A stretch of DNA of 64,000 bases from an uncultured Lachnospiraceae bacterium (GCA_948470335.1 CAOKOL010000013.1:1989-65988), one strand, 5' to 3'. Positions 29,593-45,433 are shown, counted from the stretch's first letter. A program made the numbers and translations. Notes: generated by a model not told the origin, from the sequence alone.

Positions 29593-31254
29593 ATGGCAGA
29601 TCTGATTTTTTATAACGGGATCATACATACCATGGCTGAGGACGCGGCGGAGACGAAAGTTTCCGCCGCGGCTGTTTCAGGGAATCTGATCGAAGCCGTG
29701 GGAGGGGATGAGGAAATTTTAAAACTGGCAGAGGAACAGTGCCGGATGGTTGATTTGCGGGGAAAATGCCTGGTTCCCGGCTTTCAGGACAGCCACTGTC
29801 ACCTGCTTCTGACAGGGCTGGGTTTTCGGAATCTGGACCTTCGCGGGGTGCGGTCCGCGGAAGAACTGATCGAGGCGGGCCGGGCGTATATCCGGGAGCA
29901 TCGGATTCCCGAAGGAACCTGGATATTGGGTGAAGGCTTCGATCATAACCTGTTTCCTGATCCGGTACTGCCGGATATCCGGGTGGCGGACGCCATTTCC
30001 ACATGCCATCCGATTCTGATTCAGCGGGTGTGCGGCCATGTGGGAACTGCCAACACCATGGCTTTTTCCATGGCGGGTTTCGATGCCCATACCAGATTTC
30101 CCGGCGGCGTGATTGATTTGGACGAGCGGGGGGAGATTACCGGCGTGCTGCGGGAAGCGGCTCTGGACCAGTTTAAAATGCGGATTCCCAAGCCGGATAT
30201 TCCCACATTGAAAGAGGCGATTACGGATGCCGCCCGGCATGTGAATCAGTACGGCGTTACCTCGGTCCACACCGATGACCTGGAGGGCGGCAGTCTGGAG
30301 AATATTATCCGCGCCTATCGGGAGCTGGAGCGGGAAGGCCGGTTAAATGTAAGGATATGGGAGGAGGTTCAGGCTGCCAGGCCGGAAGTTCTCCAGGCAT
30401 TTCTGGACAGGGGCCTGCGCACCGGGGACGGCAGCGATTCTTTTAAGATCGGAAATATCAAGCTGATCCTGGACGGCTCTCTGGGGGCCAGAACGGCCGG
30501 CCTGCGGGCGGATTACAGCGATGATCCCGGAAATCGGGGCATCTTTGTCTATACCCAGCCGGAACTGGACGAGGTGGTGCTTGCGGCTCATAAGGCCGGT
30601 ATGCAGGTGGCCTGCCATGCCATCGGAGACGGCGCGGTGGCGCAGAGCGTCGCGGCATTTGAAAAGGCTTACCGCCTGGACGGGAAAGACCTGCGCAACC
30701 GGGTGGTACACTGCCAGTTCGCGGACGAGGAGTTGATCCGGCGGATGGCAAAGAGCCGGATCGGGGCGGATATTCAGCCGGGCTTTGTGATTTCCGATTA
30801 TCCGCTTGCGGCCTCCCGGATGGGAGAGCGGGAAAAGTGGGGCTACCGCTGGAAATCCCTTTTGGAAGCGGGCGTTCCGATGGGCGCCGGCTCTGACGGG
30901 CCGGTGGAATCTTACAATCCGATTCTGGGAATTTATCATGGGGTGAACCGGACGGACGGGGAGACACTGCCGGAAGGTGGCTGGCATCCGGAGGAGAAGC
31001 TGACGGTCAGGGAGGCGCTGTATCTGTATACGGGAGGAGGTTCTTATCTTTCTTTTGAAGAAGACAGAAAAGGACAGATAAGGTCCGGGTTTCTGGCGGA
31101 TCTGGCGGTGCTTTCGGAGGATATTCTGGGGGTTCCTCCTGAGCGGATTCGGGATATTAAGGTGGAGATGACGGTGCTGGGAGGGAAGGTTGTGTATGAG
31201 AGGGCGTCGGAAAAGGACTGTGGAATCAGAAAGGCTGTAAAAGGAGATGAATAA
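29593..31254 (+). CDS. amidohydrolase-family metallohydrolase (YtcJ-like)
   Basis: LVPGFQDSHCHLL metal-binding motif. 553 aa, with a GSDGPV block near the C-terminus. Confidence 0.8.
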   Translation: MADLIFYNGIIHTMAEDAAETKVSAAAVSGNLIEAVGGDEEILKLAEEQCRMVDLRGKCLVPGFQDSHCHLLLTGLGFRNLDLRGVRSAEELIEAGRAYIREHRIPEGTWILGEGFDHNLFPDPVLPDIRVADAISTCHPILIQRVCGHVGTANTMAFSMAGFDAHTRFPGGVIDLDERGEITGVLREAALDQFKMRIPKPDIPTLKEAITDAARHVNQYGVTSVHTDDLEGGSLENIIRAYRELEREGRLNVRIWEEVQAARPEVLQAFLDRGLRTGDGSDSFKIGNIKLILDGSLGARTAGLRADYSDDPGNRGIFVYTQPELDEVVLAAHKAGMQVACHAIGDGAVAQSVAAFEKAYRLDGKDLRNRVVHCQFADEELIRRMAKSRIGADIQPGFVISDYPLAASRMGEREKWGYRWKSLLEAGVPMGAGSDGPVESYNPILGIYHGVNRTDGETLPEGGWHPEEKLTVREALYLYTGGGSYLSFEEDRKGQIRSGFLADLAVLSEDILGVPPERIRDIKVEMTVLGGKVVYERASEKDCGIRKAVKGDE

Positions 31255-31864
31255 AATAAAGAAAAAGACACAGGAACACAGTAAGGAAAGAGATCCCCTG
31301 GCCTGGGAAGAAATCAGCACGGAGCATATCGTTCAGGACGAATGGATCGATTTCAGAAAATCAGCGTACCGTTTTCCGGACGGCAGCATCTATGAACCCT
31401 TTTACAGTTACAGCCGCAGGGACTATGTGGTAATTGTGGCTTCGGACGAAGACGGGAATTATCTCTGTGTCCAGCAGTTCAGACAGGGGATCAAAGAAGT
31501 GACGACGGAGTTCCCGGCAGGCGGGATAGAACAAAAGGACGGCAGAGAACGTGGGACATCCGGCGGGCTGTCCGAGGAGGATGCCCTTGCGGCGGCAAAG
31601 CGGGAGCTTCTGGAGGAGACAGGGTACGCCTCCGATACGTGGCGTCATCTTCTCACCGTACCCTCCAACGCGACCATAGCCGATAACTATGCCCATCTTT
31701 TCGCGGCGGAAAATTGCGGAAAAGTAACCGGCCAGTCGCTGGATGAAACGGAATTTTTAAATGTGACGAAACATACGGCGCGGGAGATTGAAGTTCTGAT
31801 CGAAAAAGGCGGGTTTCAGCAGGCTGTTCATATTCTGGCCTGGTTGCTGGCACGCAGGAGATGA
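31247..31864 (+). CDS. NUDIX hydrolase
   Basis: Nudix box remnants GG...AAKRELLEETGY with an insertion. Overlaps the amidohydrolase end by 8 nt. Confidence 0.7.
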   Translation: MNKIKKKTQEHSKERDPLAWEEISTEHIVQDEWIDFRKSAYRFPDGSIYEPFYSYSRRDYVVIVASDEDGNYLCVQQFRQGIKEVTTEFPAGGIEQKDGRERGTSGGLSEEDALAAAKRELLEETGYASDTWRHLLTVPSNATIADNYAHLFAAENCGKVTGQSLDETEFLNVTKHTAREIEVLIEKGGFQQAVHILAWLLARRR

Positions 31865-31979
31865 CGGCGGGGGGACAGGATGTGTTCAAGCTCTGCCGGA
31901 ATGTCAGGTACAGTCCATATTCACACACTCTTTGCGGTTTTATCCATACAATATAGTATAAAACCTAAGGAGGATGAAT

Positions 31980-32744
31980 ATGGACTCTTTTCTTACATTG
32001 TCCCATGTCAGTTATGCGTACCATTCTCCCCAGGGCGAGCTGCCTGCCATGACAGATCTCTGTCTTTCCATAGAAAAAGGTGAATTCGTGTCCATCGTAG
32101 GCCCGTCAGGCTGCGGCAAATCCACGCTGCTGTCCCTGATCTGTGGCCTGCTGAAGCCTGAGGAAGGAAGTATCCTGGTGGGCGGCCATCCCCCGGATGA
32201 GTCTGACGTGAAAATCGGATATATGCTCCAGAAGGATCATCTGTTTGAGTGGAGAAATATCTTTAAAAACGTATGCCTCGGGCTGGAAATCCAGAAGGCA
32301 CAGACGCCGGACAGCCTGGCCTATACCACCCAGCTGTTAAAGTCCTACGGGCTGGAGGGATTTGAGGATGTGAGGCCCTCCGAGCTGTCCGGAGGCATGC
32401 GTCAGAGGGCGGCGCTGATCCGCACCATGACGCTGCATCCGGATCTGCTGCTGCTGGATGAGCCATTTTCCGCTCTGGACTATCAGACCCGGCTGGAGGT
32501 GTGCGACGATATTGCCATGATTATCAAAGAAGCGGGAAAAACGGCCGTGCTGGTCACTCACGATCTGTCGGAGGCCATCAGTTTCGGGAACCGGGTCATC
32601 GTCTTAAGCAGCCGTCCGGCCAGGATAAAGGCGGATATCCGTCTGTCCTTTGACGAGGATCTGTCGCCGTTAAAGCGGCGCAGCGACCAGCAGTTTTATC
32701 AGTATTTTAACATGATCTGGGAGGAGTTGAAAGGCCATGAATAA
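31980..32744 (+). CDS. NitT/TauT-family ABC ATP-binding protein
   Basis: GPSGCGKSTLL, LSGGMRQR and LLLLDEPFSALD. AAGGAGG lies 7 nt before the ATG at 31980. Confidence 0.85.
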   Translation: MDSFLTLSHVSYAYHSPQGELPAMTDLCLSIEKGEFVSIVGPSGCGKSTLLSLICGLLKPEEGSILVGGHPPDESDVKIGYMLQKDHLFEWRNIFKNVCLGLEIQKAQTPDSLAYTTQLLKSYGLEGFEDVRPSELSGGMRQRAALIRTMTLHPDLLLLDEPFSALDYQTRLEVCDDIAMIIKEAGKTAVLVTHDLSEAISFGNRVIVLSSRPARIKADIRLSFDEDLSPLKRRSDQQFYQYFNMIWEELKGHE

Positions 32745-33483
32745 TATATCGGCCGCCCAGGCGGCATATCTTTCGGGTCTGAAAAGACACAGGCAGAGGG
32801 TGAGAGGCTTCCGTCTGCTTATTTTTATTCTGCTGGTGGTTCTGTGGGAGCTGGCGGCCAGAACCGGCGTTCTGGACGATTTTATTTTCAGCAGCCCTGT
32901 CAGGATGTACCATACCTTTATGGGCATGGCCGCAGACGGCTCTATTTTCCGGCATACCGGCATCACGCTGGCGGAGACGCTGGCCAGCTTTTTTTTCGTG
33001 GTGCTGTTCAGCCTTTTGCTGGCCATGGCCCTGTGGTGGAATCGGGGGCTGTATGAAATTTTAGAGCCTTATCTGGTGGTGTTAAACAGCCTGCCCAAAT
33101 CCGCCATGGCTCCGGTGCTGATCGTCTGGCTGGGAAGCAATCCGAAGACTATTATTGTGACGGGGATACTGATCGCCGTGTTCGGCTCCATTCTGACGCT
33201 GACCGTCAGCTTTCAGGAAGCCGACCCGGAGCAGATCAAGCTGATTTATACGTTAAAGGGCAGTAAGTGGGATGTGCTGAGAAAGGTCCTGCTGCCCCGG
33301 TCCGTTCCCGTGCTGATCAGCCAGATGAAGGTGAATATCGGCCTCTGCCTGGTGGGGGTGATCATCGGCGAGTTTCTGGCGGCGGACGCAGGGCTGGGGT
33401 ATCTGATTATCTATGGGAGTCAGGTGTTTAGATGGGGAGCGGGGGTGAGAGAAGTGAGTAGCCCGGTTGCAGTCGGGTTGTAA
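32737..33483 (+). pseudogene. NitT/TauT-family ABC permease, 5' part (231 native codons), interrupted at 33429/33430
   Basis: Family-like sequence up to ...GLGYLIIYGSQVF, then 18 unrelated codons and a stop. The C-terminal 35 codons are found at 42414-42521. Confidence 0.85.
33431..33466. repeat. left terminal inverted repeat (attL inner arm)
   Basis: GATGGGGAGCGGGGGTGAGAGAAGTGAGTAGCCCGG matches the reverse complement of 42373-42410. Confidence 0.7.
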
Positions 33484-33557
33484 AAAGCGGCGGTATCATG
33501 TATACTTGATATATGGTAAAACGTATGATTGCACGGGGAAAGGAAACTGTCGTATGA

Positions 33558-34045
33558 ATGAAGACAGGGCTTGATGAACGGATTGTATTTGATCAGTTGA
33601 ACGGAAATGCGCGGGCGGTGTGGAGCCTGCTGCTTGCGACCGGATATCTGAAAGTACAAAATCTCAGGCGTGTCGGTGAGCGCAGAAAGAAAGTATATAC
33701 GCTGGCGCTTACAAATATGGCAGTGGAAATATCTTTGAAGATATGGTAAAAGGGTGGTTCGGCGGCGGCACTGAAATATATTACAATGAATTTATTAACG
33801 CGCTTCTGAATGATAATATCAGAATAATGAATACGTTTATGAATAAAGTGGCGCTAAATACGTTCCGTTCATTCGACAGCGGAAATAAGCCGTCTGATCA
33901 GACAGAGCCGGAGCGTTTCTACCATGGTTTTGTTCTTGGAATGATAGTAAATCTCGCAGACATTTATAAAATCCGTTCCAACAGAGAAAGCGGCTATGGG
34001 ATGACCTGCGTAAAGATGAAAGGGGGAATGTGTCATTATGTGTGA
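33558..34045 (+). pseudogene. remnant of an AAA-ATPase-like / PD-(D/E)XK (DUF1703-type) gene: N-terminus missing, frameshifted, 3'-truncated
   Basis: Two adjacent ORFs in different frames (..WSLLLATGYLK.., then ..MVKGWFGGG...ERFYHGFVLGMIV...SNRESGYG). The frame breaks near 33735. The conserved ESGYG block is cut off where the Rpn gene begins. Confidence 0.55.
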
Positions 34046-34868
34046 AATGGGAAAGGAAATCAAATGGGAAGAAATTGGGATTTCCAATGATTTTTTGTTT
34101 GGAAGGGTCATGCAAAATCCGAAACTCTGTAAAAAGCTGTTAGAGACAATTTTAGAAATTGAGATCGAGCGGATTGAATATCCGGAGGGACAGAAGGCAA
34201 TCAATCTGGAGAAAGATGCTAAAAGTGTAAGGCTGGATATTTTCGTGCGGGATGAAAAGAAGTCAGTTTACGATATTGAGATGCAGGCCTGCACAAGTGC
34301 GGAACTTCCCAAAAGATCGAGATATTATACGGCGATGCTGGATTTGGATATGCTGGATAAAGGAGTGAGCTATAAGGTACTGAAACACAGTTTTGTGATA
34401 TTTATCTGTACATTTGACGCTTTTGACAGGGAGCTTTATTGTTATACATTTGAAAATATGTGCCAGGAAGAAGAAGGGTTGCATCTGAATGACGGGACAA
34501 CAAAAATATTCCTGAATGCGTCAGGAACAAAGGGGAATGCAAGTCCTGAATTGAAAGCATTCCTGGGATATGTAGACGGAAACAAAAGCGATGACGCATT
34601 TGTAAAAGAACTGGATGCGGAAGTAGCAAGAGTAAGGGAAAGTAAAGAATGGAGGCGGGAATATATGACATTGTTGATGAGAGATCGGGAAAATATTGAG
34701 AAAGGAATCGAACAGGGAATCGAACAGGGAATTGAACGGGGCCAAAAATTGCTCGCAGAGCTTATAAAACATTTAATTGCGGATAATCGGATGGGGGATA
34801 TTCAGGTTGCGGTGAGTAATGAAAATGTGCGTAATCAGCTATATGAAGAATATGGATTAAAAAATTGA
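34038..34868 (+). CDS. Rpn-family recombination-promoting nuclease / putative transposase (PD-(D/E)XK), copy 1
   Basis: ISNDFLFGRVMQNPKLCKKLLE...DIEMQ...YYTAMLD blocks typical of this family. C-terminal GIEQ repeats. Confidence 0.8.
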   Translation: MCEMGKEIKWEEIGISNDFLFGRVMQNPKLCKKLLETILEIEIERIEYPEGQKAINLEKDAKSVRLDIFVRDEKKSVYDIEMQACTSAELPKRSRYYTAMLDLDMLDKGVSYKVLKHSFVIFICTFDAFDRELYCYTFENMCQEEEGLHLNDGTTKIFLNASGTKGNASPELKAFLGYVDGNKSDDAFVKELDAEVARVRESKEWRREYMTLLMRDRENIEKGIEQGIEQGIERGQKLLAELIKHLIADNRMGDIQVAVSNENVRNQLYEEYGLKN

Positions 34869-34995
34869 AATGAATGCAGCGGTGTTATGAATGGAACAAG
34901 TTTCGATAAATAAGTGTGGCTTATTGAATGTTTTCAGTTGTCCATTATAAGAAATTTTGCCGGAATTGAAAAATATATGAGGGAGTAGATTACTG

Positions 34996-35910
34996 ATGAA
35001 AATAAAACATGTAGCCATCTGCGGCATGGGTGCGCTGGGGATGCTTTATGGGAAATATATTATGGAACACGGCGGTGCGGATCAAATCCATTATGTGATG
35101 GACAGGGAGCGTTTGGAAAAATACAGGCAGCGTATTTTTTCAGTGAATGGCGTACCCTGTTGTTTTCCGATGTGTGACGGCGCTGAGGATGTGCCTGCCG
35201 ATCTGGTGATTGTGGCGGTGAAATATACGGGACTTTTTGACGCTCTTAACGTGATAGAGAAATGTGTGGGTCCGGAAACCATAATTATGTCCGTGCTGAA
35301 CGGCGTTACCAGTGAGCAGATCATCGGCGAGCGGTTTGGAAAAGAGCATCTGATTTACACGGTGGCCCAGGGGACGGATGCGGTGAAATCCGGCGGAGAT
35401 CTGGCCTTTACCAATATGGGCGAACTGAGGATCGGCGTCAGAGAGGCATGTCAGATGGCAAACCTGGAGGCCGTGTGCGGCTATTTTGACCGGATCGGTT
35501 TCCCCTATGTGGTGGAACAGGATATTATGTACCGTATTTGGAGCAAATTTATGTTCAATGTGGGCGTTAATCAGGTATGCATGGTTTACGAAACGAATTA
35601 TGGGGAATGCGCAGATCCGGACAGCGAGCCGCATCGCATGATGGTTGCGGCTATGCGGGAGGCCATGGCGGTAGCCCGCTGTGAGGGGATTCCGATTGGG
35701 GAAGAAAATCTGAATGAATATGTCCGTATGCTTGACACCCTTGCCCCTGGCGCCGTCCCTTCCATGCGCCAGGATGGCCTAGCCCGCCGCCGGTCAGAAG
35801 TGGAGATCTTTGCGGGAACGGTCATAACACTGGCGAAAAAGCACCATATTCTGGTGCCGGCGAATACGTTTCTTTATAAAAGGGTTATGGAGACGGAGGC
35901 GTCTTATTGA
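34996..35910 (+). CDS. panE: 2-dehydropantoate 2-reductase (ApbA/PanE family)
   Basis: N-terminal GMGALG dinucleotide fold. WSKFMFNVGVNQ and SMRQDGLARRRSEVEIFAG blocks. Confidence 0.8.
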   Translation: MKIKHVAICGMGALGMLYGKYIMEHGGADQIHYVMDRERLEKYRQRIFSVNGVPCCFPMCDGAEDVPADLVIVAVKYTGLFDALNVIEKCVGPETIIMSVLNGVTSEQIIGERFGKEHLIYTVAQGTDAVKSGGDLAFTNMGELRIGVREACQMANLEAVCGYFDRIGFPYVVEQDIMYRIWSKFMFNVGVNQVCMVYETNYGECADPDSEPHRMMVAAMREAMAVARCEGIPIGEENLNEYVRMLDTLAPGAVPSMRQDGLARRRSEVEIFAGTVITLAKKHHILVPANTFLYKRVMETEASY

Positions 35911-36070
35911 AGTTAGGACAGAAATTATAATTTTATTTTGGGCTGTTAAAACAGGATGGTTTCTGATAAAATATTATTATAGATATAGGGAATTGCGAAA
36001 AAACAAGGGGGATTCAGAATATCTGTTTATATCCTATCAGCCTCAGCGAATGAGACAGAAAAGGGAATGA

Positions 36071-36966
36071 ATGATTATGTATGAATTAGGAAAAGAAATA
36101 AAATGGGAAGAAATTAGGATATCCAATGATTTCCTGTTTGGGAGGGTAATGCAAAATCCGAAGCTGTGTAAAAAATTGTTAGAGACGATTTTAGAAATTG
36201 AGATCGAGCGGATCGAATATCCGGAAGGACAAAAGGTTATCAATTTAGAAAAAGATGCTAAAAGTGTGAGGCTTGATATTTTTGTGAAGGATGAGAAAAA
36301 GTCCGTTTACGACATTGAGATGCAGACATGTTCCAGCACAGAACTTCCTAAAGGATCGAGATATTAGCCGCAATGCTTGATTTGGATATGCTGGATAAGG
36401 GAGTAAGCTACAAAGAATTGAAACACAGCTTTGTAATATTTATCTGTACGTTTGATGCATTTGATAAAGAGCGCTATTGTTATACGTTTGAGAATATATG
36501 CCATGAGGAAGAAGGGCTGTGTTTGGAGGATGGAACGACGAAGATATTCTTAAATGCGTCAGGGACAAAAGGGGATGTAAGTCCTGAATTGAAAGCATTC
36601 CTGGGATATGTAGCCGGAAACAAAAGCGATGATGTGTTTGTGAAGGAACTGGATGCGGAAGTAACAAAGGTAAGGGAGAGCAAAGAATGGAGGCGGGAAT
36701 ATATGACATTGTTAATGAGGGATCAGGAAAATGTTGAGAAAGGAATTGTACAGGGAATCAAACAGGGAATCGAACAGGGAGAATTACGTCAGATAATCAG
36801 TATGGTATATAAGAAAGTAAAAAAAGGAAAAACCCCGGAAGTAATCGCTGATGAATTAGAAGAAGATTTACAACTGGTGCGAAAGATTTATGATGCTATT
36901 ATATTAGAAGGTGAAGCATATGATTGTGGAAGTATATATAATATAGTTTTTGGAAAAGTTGACTGA
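36071..36966 (+). pseudogene. Rpn-family nuclease, copy 2, disrupted by a 1-nt deletion plus TAG at 36365-36367
   Basis: Colinear with copy 1 at roughly 80-90% nucleotide identity by eye over ~700 bp. The frame changes between ORFs 36071-36367 and 36373-36966. A further diverged ~70-nt fragment of the same gene family follows at 36965-37035. Confidence 0.8.
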
Positions 36967-37355
36967 TTTGGATAAGGGAGAAAACGATAAAGAATTGAAT
37001 GGCCGTATCTTTGATAGTGTTATGTATACATGGGATAATAAAATGTGATGATTGTATAAATTTATAGAGACCATTATATTATGGATGTAAGAAATATGAA
37101 TGACACTATTTATATTATGATGAAAATATCAAAAAATTCCATTACCCCACATGTTCAAGTGTAGACCAAATAAAGGAAAGAATAAATGAGAGGTCAATTT
37201 GAAAAGGGATGGGTAATTGTGCAGGGATATGACCCTTGGCAAAGGCGTAATCCGTAGGAATAGATTTTCAGATAAATTTGCTTAGTGAAAGTGATGCAGT
37301 TTCTGGTGTTTTGAAAGAACTTTTAATTGTAAATGATTATATGGAATAAAATAGG

Positions 37356-37408
37356 GGCTTTAAATCTAAATTTGTTATAGATTTAAAGCCTCTGTTTGTT
37401 TTGTTTGC
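37356..37408 (+). terminator. perfect 12-bp hairpin plus T-rich tail
   Basis: GGCTTTAAATCT (37356-37367) / AGATTTAAAGCC (37379-37390), followed by TCTGTTTGTTTTGTTTG. Confidence 0.55.
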
Positions 37409-37443
37409 TAAAAATATAATGCTAAGTATAGGGGGATAGAGCT

Positions 37444-37776
37444 ATGGTCGTAACAATAAGCATGGATACAATAAGCAGGAGAAGTAAAGCAACAGACGGA
37501 AAAGAAATTAGTCGGATCAGATGCAGAAGTGTTGATAATCGGGTCAGGGGAGAATTAAAAGACTTTGCGCATAAAATAGATGACGAAGGCTATACACTTT
37601 TCCCGGCATTGCTGGCAGGGAAAACGAAATCAGAAAATTTTGTCTTGATGCAGCTTTTAGTTTTGGATTTTGACAGCGGTGTATCCTTTGAAACGATCAG
37701 GAAAAGAACGAAAGAAAATGTGCTTGCGGAAAGTATACTGCTCGCCATGGCGAGGAACATAAAACAAGTTCCATAA
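37444..37776 (+). pseudogene. possible N-terminal remnant of a primase-polymerase-like gene
   Basis: The 110-aa ORF contains ...FPALLAGKTKSENFVLMQLLVLDFDSG..., reminiscent of the DxD motif region of plasmid/phage prim-pol proteins. It is far too short and no continuation follows in any frame. Confidence 0.3.
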
Positions 37777-38166
37777 AAGATTCAAAAAGGCAGGACTGGG
37801 ACTTATTTGTTTCCAGTGAAAAGCGCCGGATTTTAAACATCTTAAAACAGACATTCAATCCATGCGGAATGGCTTATTAAAATATGCTCTTTTTATAGAA
37901 TAACAGAATAATTTGGAGTTTTTCCTTGAAATCACATATAAAAACAGCAAAAATAAAGCTGCCGCTTCACGAATTTTCATTCGTTAAAGCGACAGCTTCT
38001 TATTTTACAATACATCCGGCAAAATGTACCGGTACCCAAGGGTATGCTTCGAGATATCATTTTTGTTGAATTTAGAAATAGATAAAGACAGGCACAATAA
38101 CGAACGAATAACCATAAAAATAAATAGAGACCCATATAACATCATCAAGCGAAAGGAGATCATTAT

Positions 38167-38322
38167 ATGAGCGAGAAGGAAAGAAAATCCATTCGGAAAA
38201 TCGCCGTGATTTTATATCAGGAAGGGAAAATCACATTTGAGGAGCAGATGAATGTTCTGGATATTTTGCGGGAAAAGTGTGATGGTACACAAGGACAGGA
38301 GTTCGCGTCAGCCGCCATGTAA
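38167..38322 (+). CDS. 51-aa ORF immediately upstream of the recombinase, function unknown
   Basis: Not in the ORF track (below its length cutoff). AAGGAG lies 8 nt before the ATG. Sequence MSEKERKSIRKIAVILYQEGKITFEEQMNVLDILREKCDGTQGQEFASAAM. Same strand as the recombinase and 83 nt upstream of it. Confidence 0.4.
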   Translation: MSEKERKSIRKIAVILYQEGKITFEEQMNVLDILREKCDGTQGQEFASAAM

Positions 38323-38405
38323 AATACGATAGGTTTGGCAGAAAAGCCTTAGCTAAAAGAGATGGATTACCAAAGGAATCCATAAACGGAAGGAGGTGAA
38401 AATCT

Positions 38406-40286
38406 ATGGATAAACTGCGCGCAGTGATCTATAATCGCTGCAGTACGGAAGAAGAAAGCCAGAAGGACGCGCTGAAAAAGCAGGTACAGGAATCGAAAGC
38501 ATGTGTAGCGGAACAGGGATGGCAATTGACAGACTGTTATGTGGAGGCGAAAAGCGGCACCACATCCAAAGGAAGAACGGAATATAACCGGTTATACCGG
38601 GATCTGGAGCGGGACAAATTCGACATTATCGTGATTAAAAGCCAGGACCGGCTGATGCGGAATACCAAGGACTGGTATCTGTTTTTGGACCGGATGCAGA
38701 AAAATCAGAAGCGGCTGTATATGTATCTGGAACGGAAGTTTTATACACCGGACGACGCTTTGATCACAGGCATTAAAGCGATACTGGCAGAGGAATACAG
38801 CAGAGAACTGAGCAAAAAGATTAATCATGCCCATCAGAACCGTCAGAAAGAAGGAAAGAGCTTTGTCTTTACCCGGAATACATACGGACTGAAAAAACTG
38901 CCCGATAAAAGGATTGTGATTGATGAGGAACAGGCCGATATGATCAGGATGATCTTCCGGCTGTCAGCGAACGGATATGGAACTCACAGCAGCGCAGAGA
39001 TCCTTTATCAGAAAGGATACCGGAACCATGAAGGAAACGCAATCAGTCCCGGAATGATCAGGAAAATCATCAGAAATCCAATCTATAAAGGAACGGTGGT
39101 TCAGAACCGCCAGCATTATGACTTTGAGAGTAAACGGATATTCCGGAATCCGCCGTCAGAATGGATCATCCATGAACATGCCGTACCGGCCATTGTAGAC
39201 AACGAACTGTTTGAACAGGCAAACAAAGGCCTGGACGACCGCAGAGCAGGCAGAAAAAAGGAAGAAGGGATGCTACAGCCTTGGTTTCCGGCGGGCTTTC
39301 CGGCGAAAAATGATCTGGCAGGAAAAGTATTCTGCGGGCTGTGCAAAGAACCTTTTTACAGAGTGACCCGGCCTCGGAAATACGGTAAAGTGGTCGAGTG
39401 GAAGTGCAGAAGATATTTATATTATGGAAGAAATGATGAAAGCCTGCGGAAAGATCATATCAGGAAAGCGGAAAGAGCGGAAATAACTGGTTGCGATAAT
39501 GTACATATCAATGAAGAAAAACTGTACAAAGTTCTTGACCAGATCTGCCGAAAAAAGTACGACGATTTTCAGAAAGACAGATCAGATCTGCTGAATAAGA
39601 CGCTGCTGATTTTGCGGAAGGCGCTGGGAGAAGATCATGGGGCCATGAAAAGGGAGGAATTGGAATCAGTTGTGAAAAAAGAAATGCGCAAGAAAAATAT
39701 TCTGATGGAAAAATTACTGGACGGCGTGATTTCAGATACTGATTTTAAACTGAAAAATCGGGAGATCCGGGAGAAGCTGGATGATTTGGAAAAGCAGCGC
39801 AGGATGATGGAGGAGGATATGCTGCAGAATAACCGGCTGGAACAGCGGATGGATGATATCCGTAATCAACTGGAAAACGGTATGATCGAAAGAGCAGAGC
39901 TGTCAGATATGCTTGGGGATATCAAACGGGTGGATGTATTTCCGAAATATCTGGAAATAACTTTTGATTCCTTTTCCCTTATGGGATTGGACAGGAAGAC
40001 AGAGGATATGGATATCAGAGGTGAAACAGATAAACTGACCGTGATACGGATTCCTCAGACCTGCAGCAGCTCAGTTCGTCCGGATATTGAAGCGGAAAAG
40101 GAGCGGATCATAGAAATGATGCGCTGTCGGCCCCAAATTACCGCAAAGAAAATAGCGGATGAGATGCATGTGAGTATCTCGCGGGTCAACCGCAGGATCA
40201 TCGAATTGAAAAAGGAAGGACGGATCAGGTACAGCGCGTCCAATGGGAGAGGGCGGTGGAGCATGCCTGAGTGCGGGGAAACGTGA
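38406..40286 (+). CDS. large serine recombinase (626 aa)
   Basis: Resolvase-type catalytic N-terminus (AVIYNRCSTEEESQ, putative nucleophile Ser13). Recombinase domain (IRKIIRNPIYKGT). Zinc-ribbon cysteines (CGLCKEPFYRV...WKCRRY). Long coiled coil. Extra C-terminal HTH-like segment. GGAGGTG lies before the ATG. Confidence 0.9.
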   Translation: MDKLRAVIYNRCSTEEESQKDALKKQVQESKACVAEQGWQLTDCYVEAKSGTTSKGRTEYNRLYRDLERDKFDIIVIKSQDRLMRNTKDWYLFLDRMQKNQKRLYMYLERKFYTPDDALITGIKAILAEEYSRELSKKINHAHQNRQKEGKSFVFTRNTYGLKKLPDKRIVIDEEQADMIRMIFRLSANGYGTHSSAEILYQKGYRNHEGNAISPGMIRKIIRNPIYKGTVVQNRQHYDFESKRIFRNPPSEWIIHEHAVPAIVDNELFEQANKGLDDRRAGRKKEEGMLQPWFPAGFPAKNDLAGKVFCGLCKEPFYRVTRPRKYGKVVEWKCRRYLYYGRNDESLRKDHIRKAERAEITGCDNVHINEEKLYKVLDQICRKKYDDFQKDRSDLLNKTLLILRKALGEDHGAMKREELESVVKKEMRKKNILMEKLLDGVISDTDFKLKNREIREKLDDLEKQRRMMEEDMLQNNRLEQRMDDIRNQLENGMIERAELSDMLGDIKRVDVFPKYLEITFDSFSLMGLDRKTEDMDIRGETDKLTVIRIPQTCSSSVRPDIEAEKERIIEMMRCRPQITAKKIADEMHVSISRVNRRIIELKKEGRIRYSASNGRGRWSMPECGET

Positions 40287-40450
40287 TAATTATGGGGTTC
40301 CTGTCGCCTTGAATATGGCATTCTCTTTGTTGCAGAATTTATCACAATATCATGCGTCTTTGCAAAGCCAGCCGAGCCAGTCAATAGCAAGATGAACGGA
40401 TCGGCGAGCCGCTATTGACAGTCCCGTCTGTCCTTGACGGTGAGTAATCA

Positions 40451-40482
40451 AGAGGGCGACAGCATTTTTGCTGTCGCCCTCT
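40451..40482 (+). terminator. perfect 13-bp hairpin downstream of the recombinase gene (weak U-tract)
   Basis: AGAGGGCGACAGC-ATTTTT-GCTGTCGCCCTCT followed by TTGTG. Confidence 0.45.
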
Positions 40483-40817
40483 TTGTGCGCCTGGCGGCGT
40501 ATGTCACTAATGAATGAAAATTCCTAATCCGCCCTGCATATAAAAATTGCGGAGACAGATGTAAAACTGCCGGTTTTTAAAACAATTAAACCATTTAAAT
40601 CGTGGATTGCATATTGCTTTGAAAATAGGATTTTATTATAATGTATGAGGAGGGTAATTGCCTGTTTTTATATTTTGTGTAGAGAGGACACAGCAATGGA
40701 CAGACTTGGACAACTCCATGCATCAGATATATCCGGAAGCAGACACAGAAAATATCAGGAAGCCGTCTGTGATTTTGACGGAGGATTCCAATGCGGGATA
40801 TACAGAAGGGAGATTTG

Positions 40818-41735
40818 ATGGCAGACAAAGAACAATTAATCGAGATATTCGAAGATACAAAACGCTGGTATGAGGAGGAACCAAAACTGGCGGAAGCAGT
40901 GAAACAGACTGTTGCACAGACAAAGGTATATATGGAGGAGGATGGGCCTGCATTATGGGAAACGCTGAAAACCATGAGACAGAACACAACAGGCGCAGGA
41001 GCGGCTGATGCGGCAAACGCAGCGAATACACCAGGCGCAAAAGTACACCATCTTACTGTCACAGTCTCCAAAAACAAAACTTTCGAGGCAGCCCTGAAAT
41101 TAAGACAGCAGTTTCCGGATTCCAAAATCGCTGTCCACAATTTTGCCTCTGCCACCAATCCCGGCGGCGGCGTGACACGGGGAAGCAGGGCGCAGGAGGA
41201 ATGCCTGTGCAGGTGTTCCACCCTTTATCCGGCGTTGAATACGAAAGCCCTGTGGGGGCAGTTTTATCAGTTTCACAGAAACCGCCATGATGTCCGTTAT
41301 ACGGATGCCTGTATTTATACGCCCGGCGTACGGATCATAAAAACCGATACCGAGGCACCGGAACGAATGCCGGAAACGCAGTGGTGCAGCGTGGACGTTC
41401 TGACCTGTGCCGCCCCGAATCTGCGGGCCATTCCCAACAATGCAATGAATCCGGGAACCGGAGCGCCGGTGAAGGTATCTGACAGAGAACTTCTGAAACT
41501 TCATAAAAAGCGGGCCAGACATATGCTTGCCGCGGCGGCAGTAAACGGCGCCGAGATTCTGGTACTGGGAGCCTTTGGCTGCGGCGCGTTCCGGAATAAG
41601 CCGGAAGTGGTGGCCCGGGCATATCTGGAAACGATTGACGAGTTCGCATCATATTTTGAGCGGATTGAATTTGCCGTATACTGTTCTCCGAGGGACAGCA
41701 AAAATTATGAGGTATTTCGGCGGACGCTGGGGTGA
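40818..41735 (+). CDS. TIGR02452 / microbial PARG-like macrodomain-fold protein
   Basis: NFASATNPGGGVTRGSRAQEECLCRCSTLY and VLGAFGCGAFRN blocks as recalled for this family. GAAGGGAG lies before the ATG at 40818. Confidence 0.7.
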   Translation: MADKEQLIEIFEDTKRWYEEEPKLAEAVKQTVAQTKVYMEEDGPALWETLKTMRQNTTGAGAADAANAANTPGAKVHHLTVTVSKNKTFEAALKLRQQFPDSKIAVHNFASATNPGGGVTRGSRAQEECLCRCSTLYPALNTKALWGQFYQFHRNRHDVRYTDACIYTPGVRIIKTDTEAPERMPETQWCSVDVLTCAAPNLRAIPNNAMNPGTGAPVKVSDRELLKLHKKRARHMLAAAAVNGAEILVLGAFGCGAFRNKPEVVARAYLETIDEFASYFERIEFAVYCSPRDSKNYEVFRRTLG

Positions 41736-41809
41736 ATCCGTCATATTTGCCCAAAGACAATGACATGTTGGTCTGCTGTAAATATGTAGTGAGCAAAAGG
41801 AAAATTACA

Positions 41810-42415
41810 ATGATAAATATCCGAAATGAAACAGAAAACGATTACCGGATCGTAGAAGAAATCACAAGAAAAGCATTTTACAATATTTATGTTCCGGGAT
41901 GTACCGAGCATTATCTGGTACATGTGATGCGCCGACATGAAGATTTTATACCGGAACTGGATTTCGTGATCGAGCACGACGGGCAGGTGATCGGAAATAT
42001 TATGTATACACGTGCCAGACTGGTTGACGAAGCCGGAACCCAAAAAGAGATTGTCACCTTTGGGCCGGTCAGCGTTCTGCCGGAATATCAGAGAATGGGG
42101 TATGGGAAAATGCTGATGGAGCATTCCTTTGAACAGGCCGTAGTGCTTGGCTATGACGTGATCGTAATATTCGGAAGTCCCGCGAATTATGTGAGCCGCG
42201 GATTTAAAAGCTGCAAAAAGTATCATATTTGTACGGAAGAAGGAAAATATCCGGCGGCGATGATGGTGAAGGAACTGCGGCCCGGTGTATTGGACGGGAG
42301 AAAATGGGTTTATTCTGACAGCCCGGTTATGGCCGTCAATGAAGAAGAAGATTCTTACTTATGCCGGGAATGCCCGCGTATTCATTTCTCTCACTCCCGT
42401 GCCCATTCTCTTTAA
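41810..42415 (+). CDS. GNAT-family N-acetyltransferase (COG3153-like)
   Basis: MINIRNETENDY..., FGPVSVLPEYQRMGYGKMLMEH acetyl-CoA binding block. The last ~20 codons run through the right terminal repeat, and the stop TAA (42413-42415) overlaps the junction. Confidence 0.75.
   Translation: MINIRNETENDYRIVEEITRKAFYNIYVPGCTEHYLVHVMRRHEDFIPELDFVIEHDGQVIGNIMYTRARLVDEAGTQKEIVTFGPVSVLPEYQRMGYGKMLMEHSFEQAVVLGYDVIVIFGSPANYVSRGFKSCKKYHICTEEGKYPAAMMVKELRPGVLDGRKWVYSDSPVMAVNEEEDSYLCRECPRIHFSHSRAHSL
42373..42410. repeat. right terminal inverted repeat (attR inner arm)
   Basis: The reverse complement GAGAATGGGCACGGGAGTGAGAGAAATGAATACGCGGG matches 33431-33466. Confidence 0.7.
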
Positions 42416-42521
42416 AATGGACTGGGTGATGATGAGTATCGTCATCCTGTGCATTCTGGCCACGGCCCTTTATTCCTGTATTAATGTGCTGGAGAAGCAG
42501 TATCATAAAAAATGGCAGTGA
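42411..42521 (+). pseudogene. 3' part of the interrupted ABC permease (last 35 codons plus the shared Phe codon)
   Basis: F-KMDWVMMSIVILCILATALYSCINVLEKQYHKKWQ*, a hydrophobic terminal TM helix typical of the family's C-terminus. Same strand and frame-compatible with 32737-33429. Confidence 0.8.
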
Positions 42522-42551
42522 TGCTGTAATGCCGGATTAAGAAGGAAACAG

Positions 42552-42595
42552 ATCAGGGGCTGTCGGTGAATCCCGGTTTTAGCCCCTGATTTTTA
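42552..42595 (+). terminator. rho-independent terminator after the permease 3' remnant
   Basis: ATCAGGGGCT / AGCCCCTGAT 10-bp arms followed by TTTTT. Confidence 0.7.
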
Positions 42596-42685
42596 AGAAA
42601 GAGAGAAACTTATGAAATGCAGGCTATTTCAAGTCCTGACTTCACAGGAGATTCTTTCTTTTCTTTATAAAATAATGAAATTTTT

Positions 42686-43300
42686 TCATATCACCCATAC
42701 TCCCGAAAATACCAGACTGTACACCAGAATAATCCACGGCTTTCCAAGCAGAATAATCCAGACAAATTTCTTCGAGGTCATGGTCGTCAGTCCTGAGAAA
42801 TAACATAAAAAATCATCCGGAGCCAGCGGAAGCAGAATACATGCGAAAAGCAGCAGTGTAAAAAAGCGGCTCTTTCCCAGCCAGTCAGACCATTTGCTGT
42901 ATTTGTCGTCGGGAAACATATTTTTTACCAGATCGGACCCATAGCGCCGGGCCAGGTAGAAGGCGATAAGGGAGCCGGCGCAGATGCCCAGGTAGTTGTA
43001 CCAGAAGCCGCCGGACACCCCAAACAGCAGTGCGCCTGCCGCACAGCCGATCATGCCGGGCAGGATGGGGAACACAACCTGGAGTGCCTGAAACAGGGTT
43101 AAAATCACAGGGCCCAAAACGCCAAAACCGTTGATATATGTTCTCAGGGACTGAACGGAGCGGAACTGTCCGTCGATATAAGCCCGGACAAAAAAGAGCA
43201 GGATGGCGAACAGGAGAAAAAGGGCTGTGACGGATACGATTCGTTTCCATTTGTCGATTTGCGGCGCCGCTTGTCCGGGTATCTGGTTTTGCTGCATCAT
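42686..43300 (-). CDS. TVP38/TMEM64 (DedA-related) membrane protein
   Basis: 204 aa polytopic protein. LPGMIGCAAGALLFG and PLAPDDFLCYFSGLT blocks. GGAGGTG lies before the ATG. Confidence 0.8.
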   Translation of the reverse strand: MMQQNQIPGQAAPQIDKWKRIVSVTALFLLFAILLFFVRAYIDGQFRSVQSLRTYINGFGVLGPVILTLFQALQVVFPILPGMIGCAAGALLFGVSGGFWYNYLGICAGSLIAFYLARRYGSDLVKNMFPDDKYSKWSDWLGKSRFFTLLLFACILLPLAPDDFLCYFSGLTTMTSKKFVWIILLGKPWIILVYSLVFSGVWVI

Positions 43301-43597
43301 AACACCTCCGTGAAAAAATATATCGGTATTTTAACAGACACTTCTTAATTTTTTCCTGTCAGATTGCTTAACGATTTTTAATGGTTTTTAAAAGCATTAG
43401 TAAAAAAAACGATTGGTCATGATTAAACTGACGATAATTTTTATCTTAAAATTTTATGAAAAGAATTGCATAATTTTATTTTTTCTATTAAAATATATAC
43501 CGTTTATGATATCGATCTAAAAATATACTGCGGGAACGCCGGTGTGCTGTCAGACTGCCGCACTTCGGATATGCAGGTATATGGAAAAGGTAGAGAA

Positions 43598-44110
43598 ATG
43601 AAACATTCAATCGTATATTATGTAATCATGGCAGTGGCATTTCTGGTAATCCTGCGGGCGCCCTTTATGCCGTATGTGCATTCGGAGCTGCTGGCTTCCT
43701 ATTTGGATTATGATTTCCTGACGGCGACCGGTCTGGTGGAGGAGATGCATGTGCTGAATACGATGCCGGGAAGCGTCAGTTTCTTCGGTTATGAACACTA
43801 TGACCTGATTACAAAGCTTTTGATGGCGCTGGGCGTGGTGATGATCCTGCTGCCGATTCTTTTGGAAGCGGTCGGACTGGCGCTTCTTCTGAAAGGAAAA
43901 ACAGAGAAACAAAAAAAAGCAGGGATGATCCTGCCGGCGGCGGTGGTTGTCCTGTTTGCGTTCTACCTGTTTTTCTTTTCGATCGCGGGCGTATTCGTGG
44001 GGATGCCGACCCGGCCCGGTTATGGGATTTATGCGGCGCTGGCTGCCAGCATCGCCGTTATGGCGGCCGTGATTTTGTACAGCAGGGAAAGCGGAAGATT
44101 TCTTTCATGA
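43598..44110 (+). CDS. polytopic membrane protein, function unknown
   Basis: 170 aa with about 5 hydrophobic helices. The longer ORF from 43466 lies in AT-rich promoter-like DNA. Confidence 0.5.
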   Translation: MKHSIVYYVIMAVAFLVILRAPFMPYVHSELLASYLDYDFLTATGLVEEMHVLNTMPGSVSFFGYEHYDLITKLLMALGVVMILLPILLEAVGLALLLKGKTEKQKKAGMILPAAVVVLFAFYLFFFSIAGVFVGMPTRPGYGIYAALAASIAVMAAVILYSRESGRFLS

Positions 44111-44191
44111 CAGGCAAAGGCCGCAGCCGGAATTGACCGGACGTTTGTGCCGGGCAGAGCTGTCATACGAATTTGGGAAAGAGGATATGAC

Positions 44192-45433
44192 ATGGACGAT
44201 GTGATCGTCGTGGGCGGCGGCGCCGCCGGTATGACGGCGGCTCTGGCGGCTGCAAAAAACGGATGCCGCGTGCGGATTCTGGAAAAGAATGAAAAGCTGG
44301 GAAAAAAGCTGTATATTACGGGAAAGGGCCGCTGCAATCTTACAAACGGAGCGGATGTGGAAGAACTGCTGAACCATGTGGTAAGTAACCGGAAGTTTTT
44401 ATACAGTGCTTTTTACGGGTTTTCCAACAGAGATATGATGGAGCTGCTGGAAGACGCCGGACTGCCGCTGAAAACGGAGCGGGGAAACCGGGTATTTCCG
44501 GTTTCGGACAAGTCTTCGGATGTGATCCGTACGCTGCAGCGGCTGCTGAAAGAGGCCGGCGTGCGGATTTGTCTGGGCTGCCGTGCGGAAGCTGTGCTGA
44601 CGGACGGTTCTGTCTGCACGGGGGTGAGATCAGCCGACGGTCAGATTTATTCGGCCGGGCAGGTGATCGTGGCTACCGGAGGACTTTCTTATTCGTCTAC
44701 CGGCTCCACCGGGGACGGCTACCGGTTTGCTTCTGACTGCGGCCATAAGGTGACGGAGCTGTCTCCGGCGCTTGTGCCGTTTTGTGCGGCGGAAGACTGG
44801 GTTGGCAGGCTTCAGGGGCTGTCTCTGAAAAATGTTTCGGTGAAGCTGTCCCAGGGGAAAAAGATCTGCTATGAAGAATTCGGAGAGATGCTGTTCACCC
44901 ATTTCGGCGTGAGCGGTCCGGCTGTCTTAAGCGGCAGCAGCACGACGGCCAGATATCTGAAAAATGGGCCTCTGACGCTGTCTGTTGATTTAAAGCCGGC
45001 TCTGACAGAGGAGCAGTTGGATCAGCGGATTTTGCGAGATTTTTCCGCAATGCAGAACAGGCAGTTTAAAAATGCGTTTCAGGGATTGCTGCCGGCCAAA
45101 TTGATTCCGGTGATGGTGGAGCGAAGCGGGATTGACCCGGAAAAACAGGTGAATGCCATTACCCGCGGGGAAAGAGAACAGCTTGTCAGTCTGATTAAGC
45201 ACTTTACGCTGACGCTGACGGGGCTGCGGGATTATAATGAGGCCATTATCACCCAGGGCGGCGTCTCGGTGAAGGAGATTGATCCCGGAACGATGGAGTC
45301 AAAGCTGGTGAGAGGGCTTTTCTTTGCGGGTGAGGTGCTGGACGTGGATGCCATGACCGGCGGATATAATCTGCAGATCGCTTGGTCTACGGGATATGCG
45401 GCGGGAAGCCACTGTAAAGCAGCGGAATCATAG
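44192..45433 (+). CDS. HI0933/BaiN-like NAD(FAD)-utilising flavoprotein
   Basis: VIVVGGGAAGMTAAL..., ITGKGRCNLTN, and a C-terminal MTGGYNLQIAWSTG block. Confidence 0.85.
   Translation: MDDVIVVGGGAAGMTAALAAAKNGCRVRILEKNEKLGKKLYITGKGRCNLTNGADVEELLNHVVSNRKFLYSAFYGFSNRDMMELLEDAGLPLKTERGNRVFPVSDKSSDVIRTLQRLLKEAGVRICLGCRAEAVLTDGSVCTGVRSADGQIYSAGQVIVATGGLSYSSTGSTGDGYRFASDCGHKVTELSPALVPFCAAEDWVGRLQGLSLKNVSVKLSQGKKICYEEFGEMLFTHFGVSGPAVLSGSSTTARYLKNGPLTLSVDLKPALTEEQLDQRILRDFSAMQNRQFKNAFQGLLPAKLIPVMVERSGIDPEKQVNAITRGEREQLVSLIKHFTLTLTGLRDYNEAIITQGGVSVKEIDPGTMESKLVRGLFFAGEVLDVDAMTGGYNLQIAWSTGYAAGSHCKAAES

Follow-up and report, generated by a model that had tools for sequence, protein, structure and literature searches.

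A non-phage cassette encoding a large serine recombinase very probably splits a predicted NitT/TauT-like ABC permease gene at a phenylalanine codon in an uncultured Lachnospiraceae bacterium

Within a 64,000-nucleotide stretch of DNA from an uncultured Lachnospiraceae bacterium (the window; GCA_948470335.1, CAOKOL010000013.1:1989-65988), a gene for an ATP-binding cassette (ABC) permease breaks off after 231 codons, and what appears to be its missing C-terminus lies some 9 kb further downstream on the same strand. What separates the two parts, how did it arrive there and could the gene be made whole again? We consider it highly probable that the intervening 8,984 bp (33429-42412) is a non-phage integrative cassette that encodes the large serine recombinase (LSR) responsible for its insertion at the Phe-231 codon of the permease. 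The cassette belongs to a large, undescribed family from Lachnospiraceae and other Clostridia, whose members combine a small open reading frame (ORF) with an LSR and land at this codon.

The 248-aa ORF called at 32737..33483 reads as a permease as far as the Phe codon TTT at 33427-33429, where it passes into element-encoded, unrelated codons (RWGAGVREVSSPVAVGL) and a stop; the initial annotation had recognized this unrelated tail and given its length as 18 codons, which is corrected here to 17 plus the stop. The peptide KMDWVMMSIVILCILATALYSCINVLEKQYHKKWQ* begins at 42414, immediately 3' of a second TTT (42411-42413), a placement that had also been proposed previously and that is confirmed both by the sequence and by homologue alignment. 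Removal of 8,984 bp gives an in-frame ORF of 801 nucleotides (nt), encoding 266 amino acids (aa), which matches the Pfam family BPD_transp_1 (PF00528; residues 90-253, E=1.4e-20); the earlier claim of a cleanly split gene with halves that rejoin in frame is, therefore, upheld. The exact cut point is ambiguous within the TTTA common to 33427-30 and 42411-14: five equivalent 8,984-bp deletions yield an identical ORF. The match of the downstream peptide is not due to chance, because homologues and intact relatives continue alike: full-length permease homologues uniformly read on as ...QVF[KQ][ML]D.[VL].MSI..LC..., and the intact 265-aa relatives P0245, P0246 and P0251, which fall in the same 90% cluster, have the C-terminus KMDWVMMSIVILCVLATALYSCINMLEKQYQKKC. 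The window piece is 88% identical to the C-terminus of intact P0245 (contig L095) at the aa level and 91% at the nt level, and the C-termini of homologues do align to the 42414-42521 peptide, a point on which the initial annotation had staked its interpretation. The insert is also AT-richer than its surroundings, as first noted, with a G+C content of 43.3% versus 53.3% and 51.6% in the two flanks.

Uninterrupted versions of the permease gene occur on contigs L095-L099 (encoding P0245) and L100 (encoding P0251). In blastn comparisons with the P0245 contigs, window positions 31913-33430 are joined directly to 42411-42520, with identities of 94.5% and 90.9%, respectively, and no extra bases (E=1.9e-38 for the C-terminal piece); the corresponding values for L100 are 88% and 92%. 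These are precise empty sites of the kind that the initial annotation had suggested looking for in related genomes, and their existence answers its concern that all relatives might carry the same 9 kb at this position. Moreover, the empty contigs L095 and L096 are conspecific with L101 and L102, where the site holds a related element (97.8-99.2% nt identity in the left flank), and occupancy is therefore polymorphic within a species.

The LSR reported previously in the insert is an intact protein of 626 aa, in which Pfam recognizes Resolvase (PF00239; residues 6-151, 6.1e-25), Recombinase (PF07508; residues 174-279, 8.4e-22) and Zn_ribbon_recom (PF13408; residues 304-375, 3.3e-6) domains, together with a winged helix (PF13412; 8e-6). 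Within the motif YNRCSTEEE, Arg11 and Ser13 are invariant in 14 family members, as are Asp81, Arg82 and Arg85 (the RxS and DRLxR motifs, respectively), and the zinc-ribbon cysteines Cys310, Cys313, Cys334 and Cys363 are invariant in the family alignment. The ratio of non-synonymous to synonymous divergence (dN/dS) for the LSR is 0.09-0.15, indicating purifying selection, and a search of the PDB gave matches limited to the catalytic domain. The whole clade bears an extra C-terminal winged helix-turn-helix (wHTH; HTH_24/HTH_11/MarR-like), comprising LSR residues ~560-626 (window 40090-40286). Directly 3' of the LSR stop, there is a 26-nt inverted repeat (40363-40436; 77% complementary, 22-nt spacer), a candidate that may be a terminator or a binding site. 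Of 84 loci, 78 have a small ORF call immediately 5' of the LSR (in the window, the 51-aa ORF); roughly 70 of the 84 (40-60 aa, by eye) carry the helix motif ..I[ML].[KQ][IL]A.[IL]L..E.LI[TS]..E[EQ].., and among family loci the small ORF often overlaps the LSR start by 4 nt (translational coupling). It has no family in either Pfam or PHROGs.

A profile scan for LSR relatives, using one genome per GTDB species, found them in at least 262 species genomes, and the best 80 loci (43-69% LSR identity, all from Lachnospiraceae or other Clostridia) were taken for a census of the locus. A permease fragment split at the same codon adjoins the LSR in 73 of the 80: in 69, it is the N-terminal part, broken right after GLGYLIIYGSQVF, and in four it is the C-terminal part only; an intact permease was seen in none, and the remaining seven loci, several of them on short contigs, have neither fragment. 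Both halves are present in 23 loci, and these complete elements span 3,318-13,398 bp, the smallest (3.3-3.7 kb) having one to three cargo genes besides the LSR and the small ORF. In sister lineages, LSRs that are 85-90% identical occupy this codon too and the cargo is different, for example a toxin–antitoxin (TA) pair in L008, and a TA pair, RtcB, a ParM-like or metallo-beta-lactamase-fold protein, a nucleotidyltransferase/HEPN pair and HTH_17 in L101 and L102. Sister elements also carry the defence systems Septu (PtuA 8e-165, PtuB 1.7e-68) and PDC-M38, and apparent PTS, ABC and MATE transporter genes, the last three being read from the sequence without a database search. The initial view that an integrated LSR element splits the gene is, thus, reinforced by the 73 loci at the same split gene, by the empty sites and by a terminal inverted repeat.

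The latter is 31 nt in length, is the longest inverted repeat in 33000-43000 and lies exactly at the ends of the insert; its left arm is conserved in relatives, to which the tail RWGAGVREV is common. A comparison of the 23 complete elements leaves TT, which opens the Phe codon, as the only dinucleotide that the two junctions always have in common; the remaining base of this codon comes from the element arm in attL and from the host in attR. Judging from this comparison, crossover most likely takes place at this TT. The reconstructed phage-type attachment (att) site, attP, is palindromic around TT, and reads TATCAGAATGCC...TT...GGCATTCTGATA in most clades and TCTCTCAC.CCCG...TT...CGGGGGTGAGAGA in the window, and, therefore, the att arms change with the recombinase clade. 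The reconstructed attB is the conserved coding sequence aTATcTGATtATcTAt....CAGGTaTTtAAaaTgGA; for the window, the empty junction would read GGAGTCAGGTGTTTAAAATGGACTGGG and the circle junction GCCCATTCTCTTTAGATGGGGAGC. From the established LSR mechanism, and by inference, a non-palindromic TT core would fit directional integration. The direction of the LSR gene differs between clades: in most (L015-L094), it lies next to attL and is directed at the N-terminal part of the permease, and in the window clade, L068, L089, L091 and L093, it is directed at attR. Relative to the permease, the orientation of the att arms stays the same, and attP is therefore inverted from clade to clade with respect to the LSR gene.

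The proposed sequence of events is as follows: a circular form of the element, presenting an attP composed of two imperfect inverted arms and a TT core, would have recombined with an attB located in the most conserved motif of the permease (GLGYLIIYGSQVF|KMD), where cleavage of both strands, staggered by the 2-nt TT, and subunit rotation would generate attL (33427-33460) and attR (42379-42414). This would separate the permease from its last transmembrane helix and probably inactivate it; given the loss of this helix, transporter function is most likely absent for as long as the cassette is in place. Precise recombination between attL and attR would restore the permease gene. Reversal of this kind normally requires a recombination directionality factor (RDF) for LSRs (PMC3783163, PMC12286644); excision of the cassette would probably do so too, and the best candidate is the 51-aa ORF (38167-38322), which we put forward as a putative RDF or accessory protein. 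The cassette may still be capable of excision at the present day.

The family moves horizontally. Near-identical LSRs are found in diverged host genes: the synonymous divergence (dS) of the LSR against that of the permease is 0.02 versus 0.42 for L073/L085, 0.09 versus 0.71 for L015/L050 and 0.31 versus 1.04 for L056/L058, indicating, therefore, horizontal movement with re-insertion at the same codon. The reverse decoupling is seen between the window and L102 (LSR dS 0.77, permease dS 0.28). Decoupled dS values, taken with presence and absence within a species, speak for elements that move horizontally and against a switch that is fixed vertically. Scans of the element ORFs against Pfam, NCBIfam and PHROG found no relaxase or replication genes, and cell-to-cell spread would therefore depend on hitch-hiking with other vehicles or on homologous recombination of the flanks.

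Several observations weigh against a cassette that was integrated, and could be excised, in this simple way. Three cargo genes in the left arm are decayed, which could be a sign of an ageing element. Neither the circle junction (GCCCATTCTCTTTAGATGGGGAGC) nor a degenerate form of the empty junction, both of which the initial annotation had proposed to seek, had any match in JGI metagenome assemblies, and the exact rebuilt permease is absent from a collection of 15 billion proteins; these junction databases are assemblies, which rarely capture rare excision products. The exact LSR is present on 16 metagenome contigs, all at the same locus, and recent activity of this copy is therefore unproven. 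Samples in which the cassette occurs are ERZ14864105, ERZ14867593, ERZ14867575, SRR11229737 and SRR31563908. Lastly, in L095 and L097 the intact permease is followed by a 5-kb island (L095:3932-8940) containing a TA pair, RtcB, panE, a glyoxalase and a PARG-like gene, which are 84-88% identical to genes in the att-bounded cassettes of the window (34987-35911, 40806-41736), L008 and L101. LSR, small ORF and terminal att arms are all missing from the island, which is not accounted for by simple cut-and-paste or a simple recombinase reaction.

The most serious alternative, which we nevertheless regard as unlikely, is that the element was integrated once by its LSR and has since lost the ability to excise, leaving the permease of this lineage as a permanent pseudogene. 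The decayed genes of the left arm would be expected of such a fossil, as would the same junctions on every contig bearing the exact LSR, and the failure to find a circle or empty junction of this lineage in the JGI searches; set against this are an LSR that is full length, retains all of the family-invariant residues and has a low dN/dS, a small ORF and two att arms that are intact, permease halves and an ATPase gene that are still open and conserved, and the fact that the assemblies searched would seldom hold rare excision products in any case.

At the other extreme, the cassette could be a reversible genetic switch, with the conserved ~50-aa ORF representing a new RDF family for the wHTH-bearing LSR clade and regulated excision, whether in a subpopulation, under stress or in the course of sporulation, restoring the permease; this we hold to be quite improbable. 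If it were true, a single transporter gene would act as a conditional on/off locus in hundreds of Lachnospiraceae species, and the same site would be a shared docking point for swapping defence and accessory genes without dedicated transfer machinery. A domesticated, developmentally regulated element of the skin/gin type, retained by the host, which the LSR and small ORF would excise in a terminally differentiated cell, such as the sporulating mother cell, or on a defined signal so as to turn on the transporter, is very improbable. Lachnospiraceae include spore-formers. The LSR, small ORF and att arms are intact, all 23 complete loci retain both halves of the gene intact, and strong purifying selection is evident even between two occupied lineages (dN/dS 0.014-0.03 for the N-terminal part of the permease; for the ATPase, 0.05-0.07 versus relatives); furthermore, the minimal 3.3-3.7 kb elements hold little beyond the small ORF and LSR, which is reminiscent of gin (PMC5595907). 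Nevertheless, recent insertions explain the low dN/dS values equally well, and these are compatible with recent insertion and retained function alike and do not separate the two. Moreover, the divergence of LSR and host gene is decoupled in both directions, empty and occupied alleles coexist in one species, the cargo is very variable and typical of mobile elements (Septu, PDC-M38, TA pairs), most permease homologues are uninterrupted and the target is not a known sporulation gene; indeed, no sporulation annotation was found for the permease operon.

That the insert is a prophage or phage remnant acting as an active-lysogeny switch, in the manner of phi10403S in comK or SPbeta in spsM, can scarcely be credited. 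The LSR does match the phage integrase family phrog_95 and the insert is AT-rich relative to the host; however, no phage structural, packaging or lysis genes were found in the Pfam, NCBIfam and PHROG scans of the element ORFs, and capsid, tail, terminase, lysis and repressor genes are lacking from the window element and from the 3.3-13.4 kb sister elements alike. The closest LSR relatives in IMG/VR (2.9 million contigs) are at most 41% identical and do not have the C-terminal wHTH domain, those in GenBank phages reach at most 30% identity over the full length and no plasmid-borne relative exceeds 33%. Finally, we give next to no credence to an assembly chimera, or a rearrangement unrelated to site-specific recombination: metagenome assemblies do break near the LSR module, but an artefact is dismissed because a second, independent assembly, L002, spans both junctions with identical structure at 99.6% identity, and the 23 complete elements elsewhere share this junction structure.

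An integrative cassette thus being the favoured explanation, we turn to its target. The operon is a conserved two-gene ATPase–permease unit in the window, L019, L027, L034, L045, L055 and L063. In the window and these six other species, no gene for a substrate-binding protein was found 5' of the ATPase on the operon strand, and the two extra genes upstream in L095 are not binding proteins. The best NCBIfam models for the rebuilt permease (SaoP, SsuC, TauC and NtrB) all score far under their equivalog cutoffs, and JGI labels one cluster member as a NitT/TauT permease; the prediction of a NitT/TauT-like ABC permease holds at the level of the family. The strong terminator placed after the C-terminal piece by the initial annotation is substantiated by folding (Table 1), having been missed by a simple consensus terminator scan because of its long loop. 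As the permease is the last gene before this terminator, no polar effect of the insertion would be expected downstream. A promoter consensus scan gave 27 hits versus 22.5 +/- 4.6 in shuffled sequences, which is not above expectation, and no tRNA or Rfam features were found in 31000-44500.

The target operon itself has a history of exchange. Between the window and the L101/L095 lineage, dS is 0.22-0.32 for the ATPase and both permease halves, as against 0.94-1.04 for the neighbouring genes (amidohydrolase, NUDIX and VTT); the left edge, at 31913, is sharp, and the operon has therefore been exchanged recently between lineages. The DNA 3' of the permease stop is unrelated among three lineages. 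Additionally, independent assemblies of the window-type element (L003, L004, L006 and L007) all stop 439 nt upstream of the LSR (~37696-37966), and L008-type (P0123) contigs all stop ~155 nt downstream of it (L008 ~10166-10321); since the assemblies break at fixed points, the DNA on either side of the recombinase module is taken to vary, or to be repeated, in the population. Together, the L095 island, the variable 3' DNA and the fixed assembly breaks suggest a second hypervariable spot beside the att site, along with exchange of cargo modules.

Two candidates relating to the permease C-terminus were considered and rejected. L014 (P0001) is not an empty site: the gene is intact and has a different C-terminal allele (KLDLVMM...YQGIAWLEKRVSSR), being 93% identical to the window at the nt level up to the att core and ~58% identical after it. 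Similarly, tblastn alignments that extended beyond residue 232 had hinted at a substitute C-terminus supplied by some sister elements, but every tail after ...QVF is unrelated and 1-150 aa in length. The 3' end of the permease is mosaic between lineages, as seen for L014 versus window 42414-42521. The split permease P0013 (JGI, 259 aa) is also composite: its N-terminal ~115 residues resemble those of another species (by eye, versus P0026), and from ...EILEPYLVV on it matches the P0242 lineage exactly, the element-encoded tail included. This would be either a recombinant allele brought in with the element or a chimeric assembly.

From left to right, the cassette comprises the left arm, an AAA-ATPase/PDDEXK_9 remnant, a first Rpn gene, panE, a second Rpn gene, a primase-like remnant, the 51-aa ORF, the LSR, PARG-like and GNAT genes and the right arm (Table 1). 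By blastx, the first remnant corresponds to aa ~341-499 of full-length genes in the sister elements L028, L066 and L091 (E down to 1e-38). The two Rpn copies are 85-87% identical direct repeats (34024-34741 and 36063-36779) that enclose panE in the manner of a composite unit; the second is intact in L002, as a 298-aa ORF, from which the window differs by a single gap. A 250-aa primase-like gene precedes the recombinase module in sister elements, and the L101 version of its product matches phrog_25531 and, weakly, DNA primase. The GNAT gene takes its final codons from the right att arm, and its TAA stop (42413-42415) straddles the junction; in the reconstructed attP, the GNAT frame would stop with TAG at the same position. 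PADLOC gave no meaningful match for the window cargo, the Rpn copy 1 product scoring a weak 1.9e-5.

Table 1. Positions in the window of the split operon, the att sites and the genes carried by the cassette
Feature	Position	Strand	Basis
ABC transporter ATPase gene, first of two-gene target operon, overlapping permease start	31974..32744	+	ORF; PF00005 on orthologues
Permease N-terminal part, codons 1-231, ends ...GLGYLIIYGSQVF	32737..33429	+	ORF, family consensus, identity of relatives stopping at 33430
attL core TTTA, probable crossover TT 33427-33428	33427..33430	+	Shared with attR
Left terminal inverted-repeat arm (putative attP half-site P')	33430..33460	+	31 nt, 77% complementary to 42379-42409
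Remnant of ~565-aa AAA-ATPase/PDDEXK_9 gene, truncated at both ends, frameshifted pseudogene	33558..34045	+	blastx and weak PDDEXK_9 match
Rpn-family recombination-promoting nuclease (PDDEXK_2), copy 1	34038..34868	+	TIGR01784 1.4e-33; PF12784 5.4e-16
2-Dehydropantoate 2-reductase (PanE/ApbA), cargo	34996..35910	+	TIGR00745 3.5e-53, above curated cutoff; PF02558, PF08546
Rpn-family nuclease, copy 2, frameshifted in window	36071..36966	+	Direct repeat of copy 1, 2,039 bp away
Remnant of 250-aa primase-like gene, N-terminal ~98 aa only	37444..37776	+	blastx 60% identity to L101 250-aa protein, E=3.7e-34
Conserved 51-aa ORF upstream of LSR	38167..38322	+	Good ribosome-binding site; family motif
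LSR, 626 aa, intact	38406..40286	+	Pfam domains; phrog_95 integrase 1.6e-79
Microbial PARG-like macrodomain protein, cargo	40791..41735	+	PF10021 8.5e-38; TIGR02452 1.6e-48
GNAT acetyltransferase, cargo	41732..42415	+	PF00583 4e-10; phrog_11841 2e-45
Right terminal inverted-repeat arm (putative attP half-site P)	42379..42409	+	Partner of 33430-33460
attR core TTTA, TT 42411-42412	42411..42414	+	Shared with attL
Permease C-terminal part: last transmembrane helix and tail, 35 codons and stop	42414..42521	+	ORF and homologue comparison
Intrinsic terminator of ABC operon	42550..42597	+	Fold -24.7 kcal/mol, z=-3.5, then UUUUU

Gene-targeting LSR elements are already well documented, and no new principle is involved here. 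The main text of Durrant et al. 2022 (PMC10083194) describes divergent LSRs aimed at one conserved position in a coding sequence, with a prolyl isomerase gene and a Mg-chelatase/ComM-like gene as targets. As in the clades presented there, many distantly related LSRs (43-100% identity here) converge on one conserved site in one gene family, disrupting the gene, and in both cases the core is a 2-bp dinucleotide and the attP arms vary in step with the LSR; unlike the examples in that text, the target here is a NitT/TauT-like permease, and the clade has the extra C-terminal wHTH and the conserved small upstream ORF. A literature search found no description of a permease-targeting LSR clade, and the word 'permease' is absent from the main text of that paper, its supplementary tables lying outside the search.

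Among elements that are known to excise, skin and SPbeta are a prophage or prophage-derived, and 15-135 kb in length. Like the cassette, they are LSR-bounded inserts within coding sequences (skin in sigK, with SpoIVCA; SPbeta in spsM, with SprA/SprB), for which the gene is reconstituted in frame and a small RDF sets the direction (PMC5025042, PMC5499854, PMC4191935). They interrupt mother-cell genes, whereas the cassette is 9 kb, has no phage genes and no sporulation link was found for it; hence, the analogy with skin and active lysogeny drawn in the initial annotation holds for the mechanism and fails for phage origin and sporulation, and the family moves horizontally. The gin element, in gerE of Bacillus cereus ATCC 10987, employs the LSR GirC together with GirX, contains three recombinase genes and undergoes sporulation-specific excision (Abe et al. 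2017, PMC5595907). It resembles the cassette in being a small, non-phage element that splits a coding sequence, has a serine recombinase and a small factor (a candidate in our case) and would leave a gene rebuilt by precise recombination; it differs in that its target is a sporulation regulator and its excision has been shown, whereas the cassette, for which excision is a prediction, has a transporter target, a horizontally mobile family and variable cargo. In the fdxN element of Anabaena, too, a gene-interrupting element is removed by an LSR, XisF, which is the top NCBIfam equivalog for the window LSR; however, the score (85 bits) is far under the cutoff of 375, and the host phylum, size and developmental context differ. 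The staphylococcal cassette chromosome (SCC/SCCmec; CcrAB, CcrC) likewise couples an LSR to variable cargo, without transfer or replication genes of its own, at one conserved site in several species. Insertion of SCC, at the 3' end of rlmH, does not destroy that gene, whereas the permease coding sequence is split in its last fifth, and the LSR is not a Ccr: the CcrB, CcrA and CcrC models give 72.6, 51.9 and 44.1 bits, respectively, versus cutoffs of 700-900 (900 for CcrB).

For this bacterium, the analysis explains an apparent permease pseudogene as a split gene that could, in principle, be rebuilt, and it identifies 9 kb of the window as accessory mobile DNA. More broadly, it defines an uncharacterized LSR clade of gut Lachnospiraceae, distinguished by an extra wHTH, a small partner ORF and a single, very conserved target codon. 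The 23 natural attL/attR pairs, with their reconstructed attB and attP sites and TT core, offer material for the development of integrase and RDF tools, and the cassettes should be useful for tracking the spread of defence genes (Septu, PDC-M38 and TA pairs) among commensals by elements that have no transfer genes of their own.

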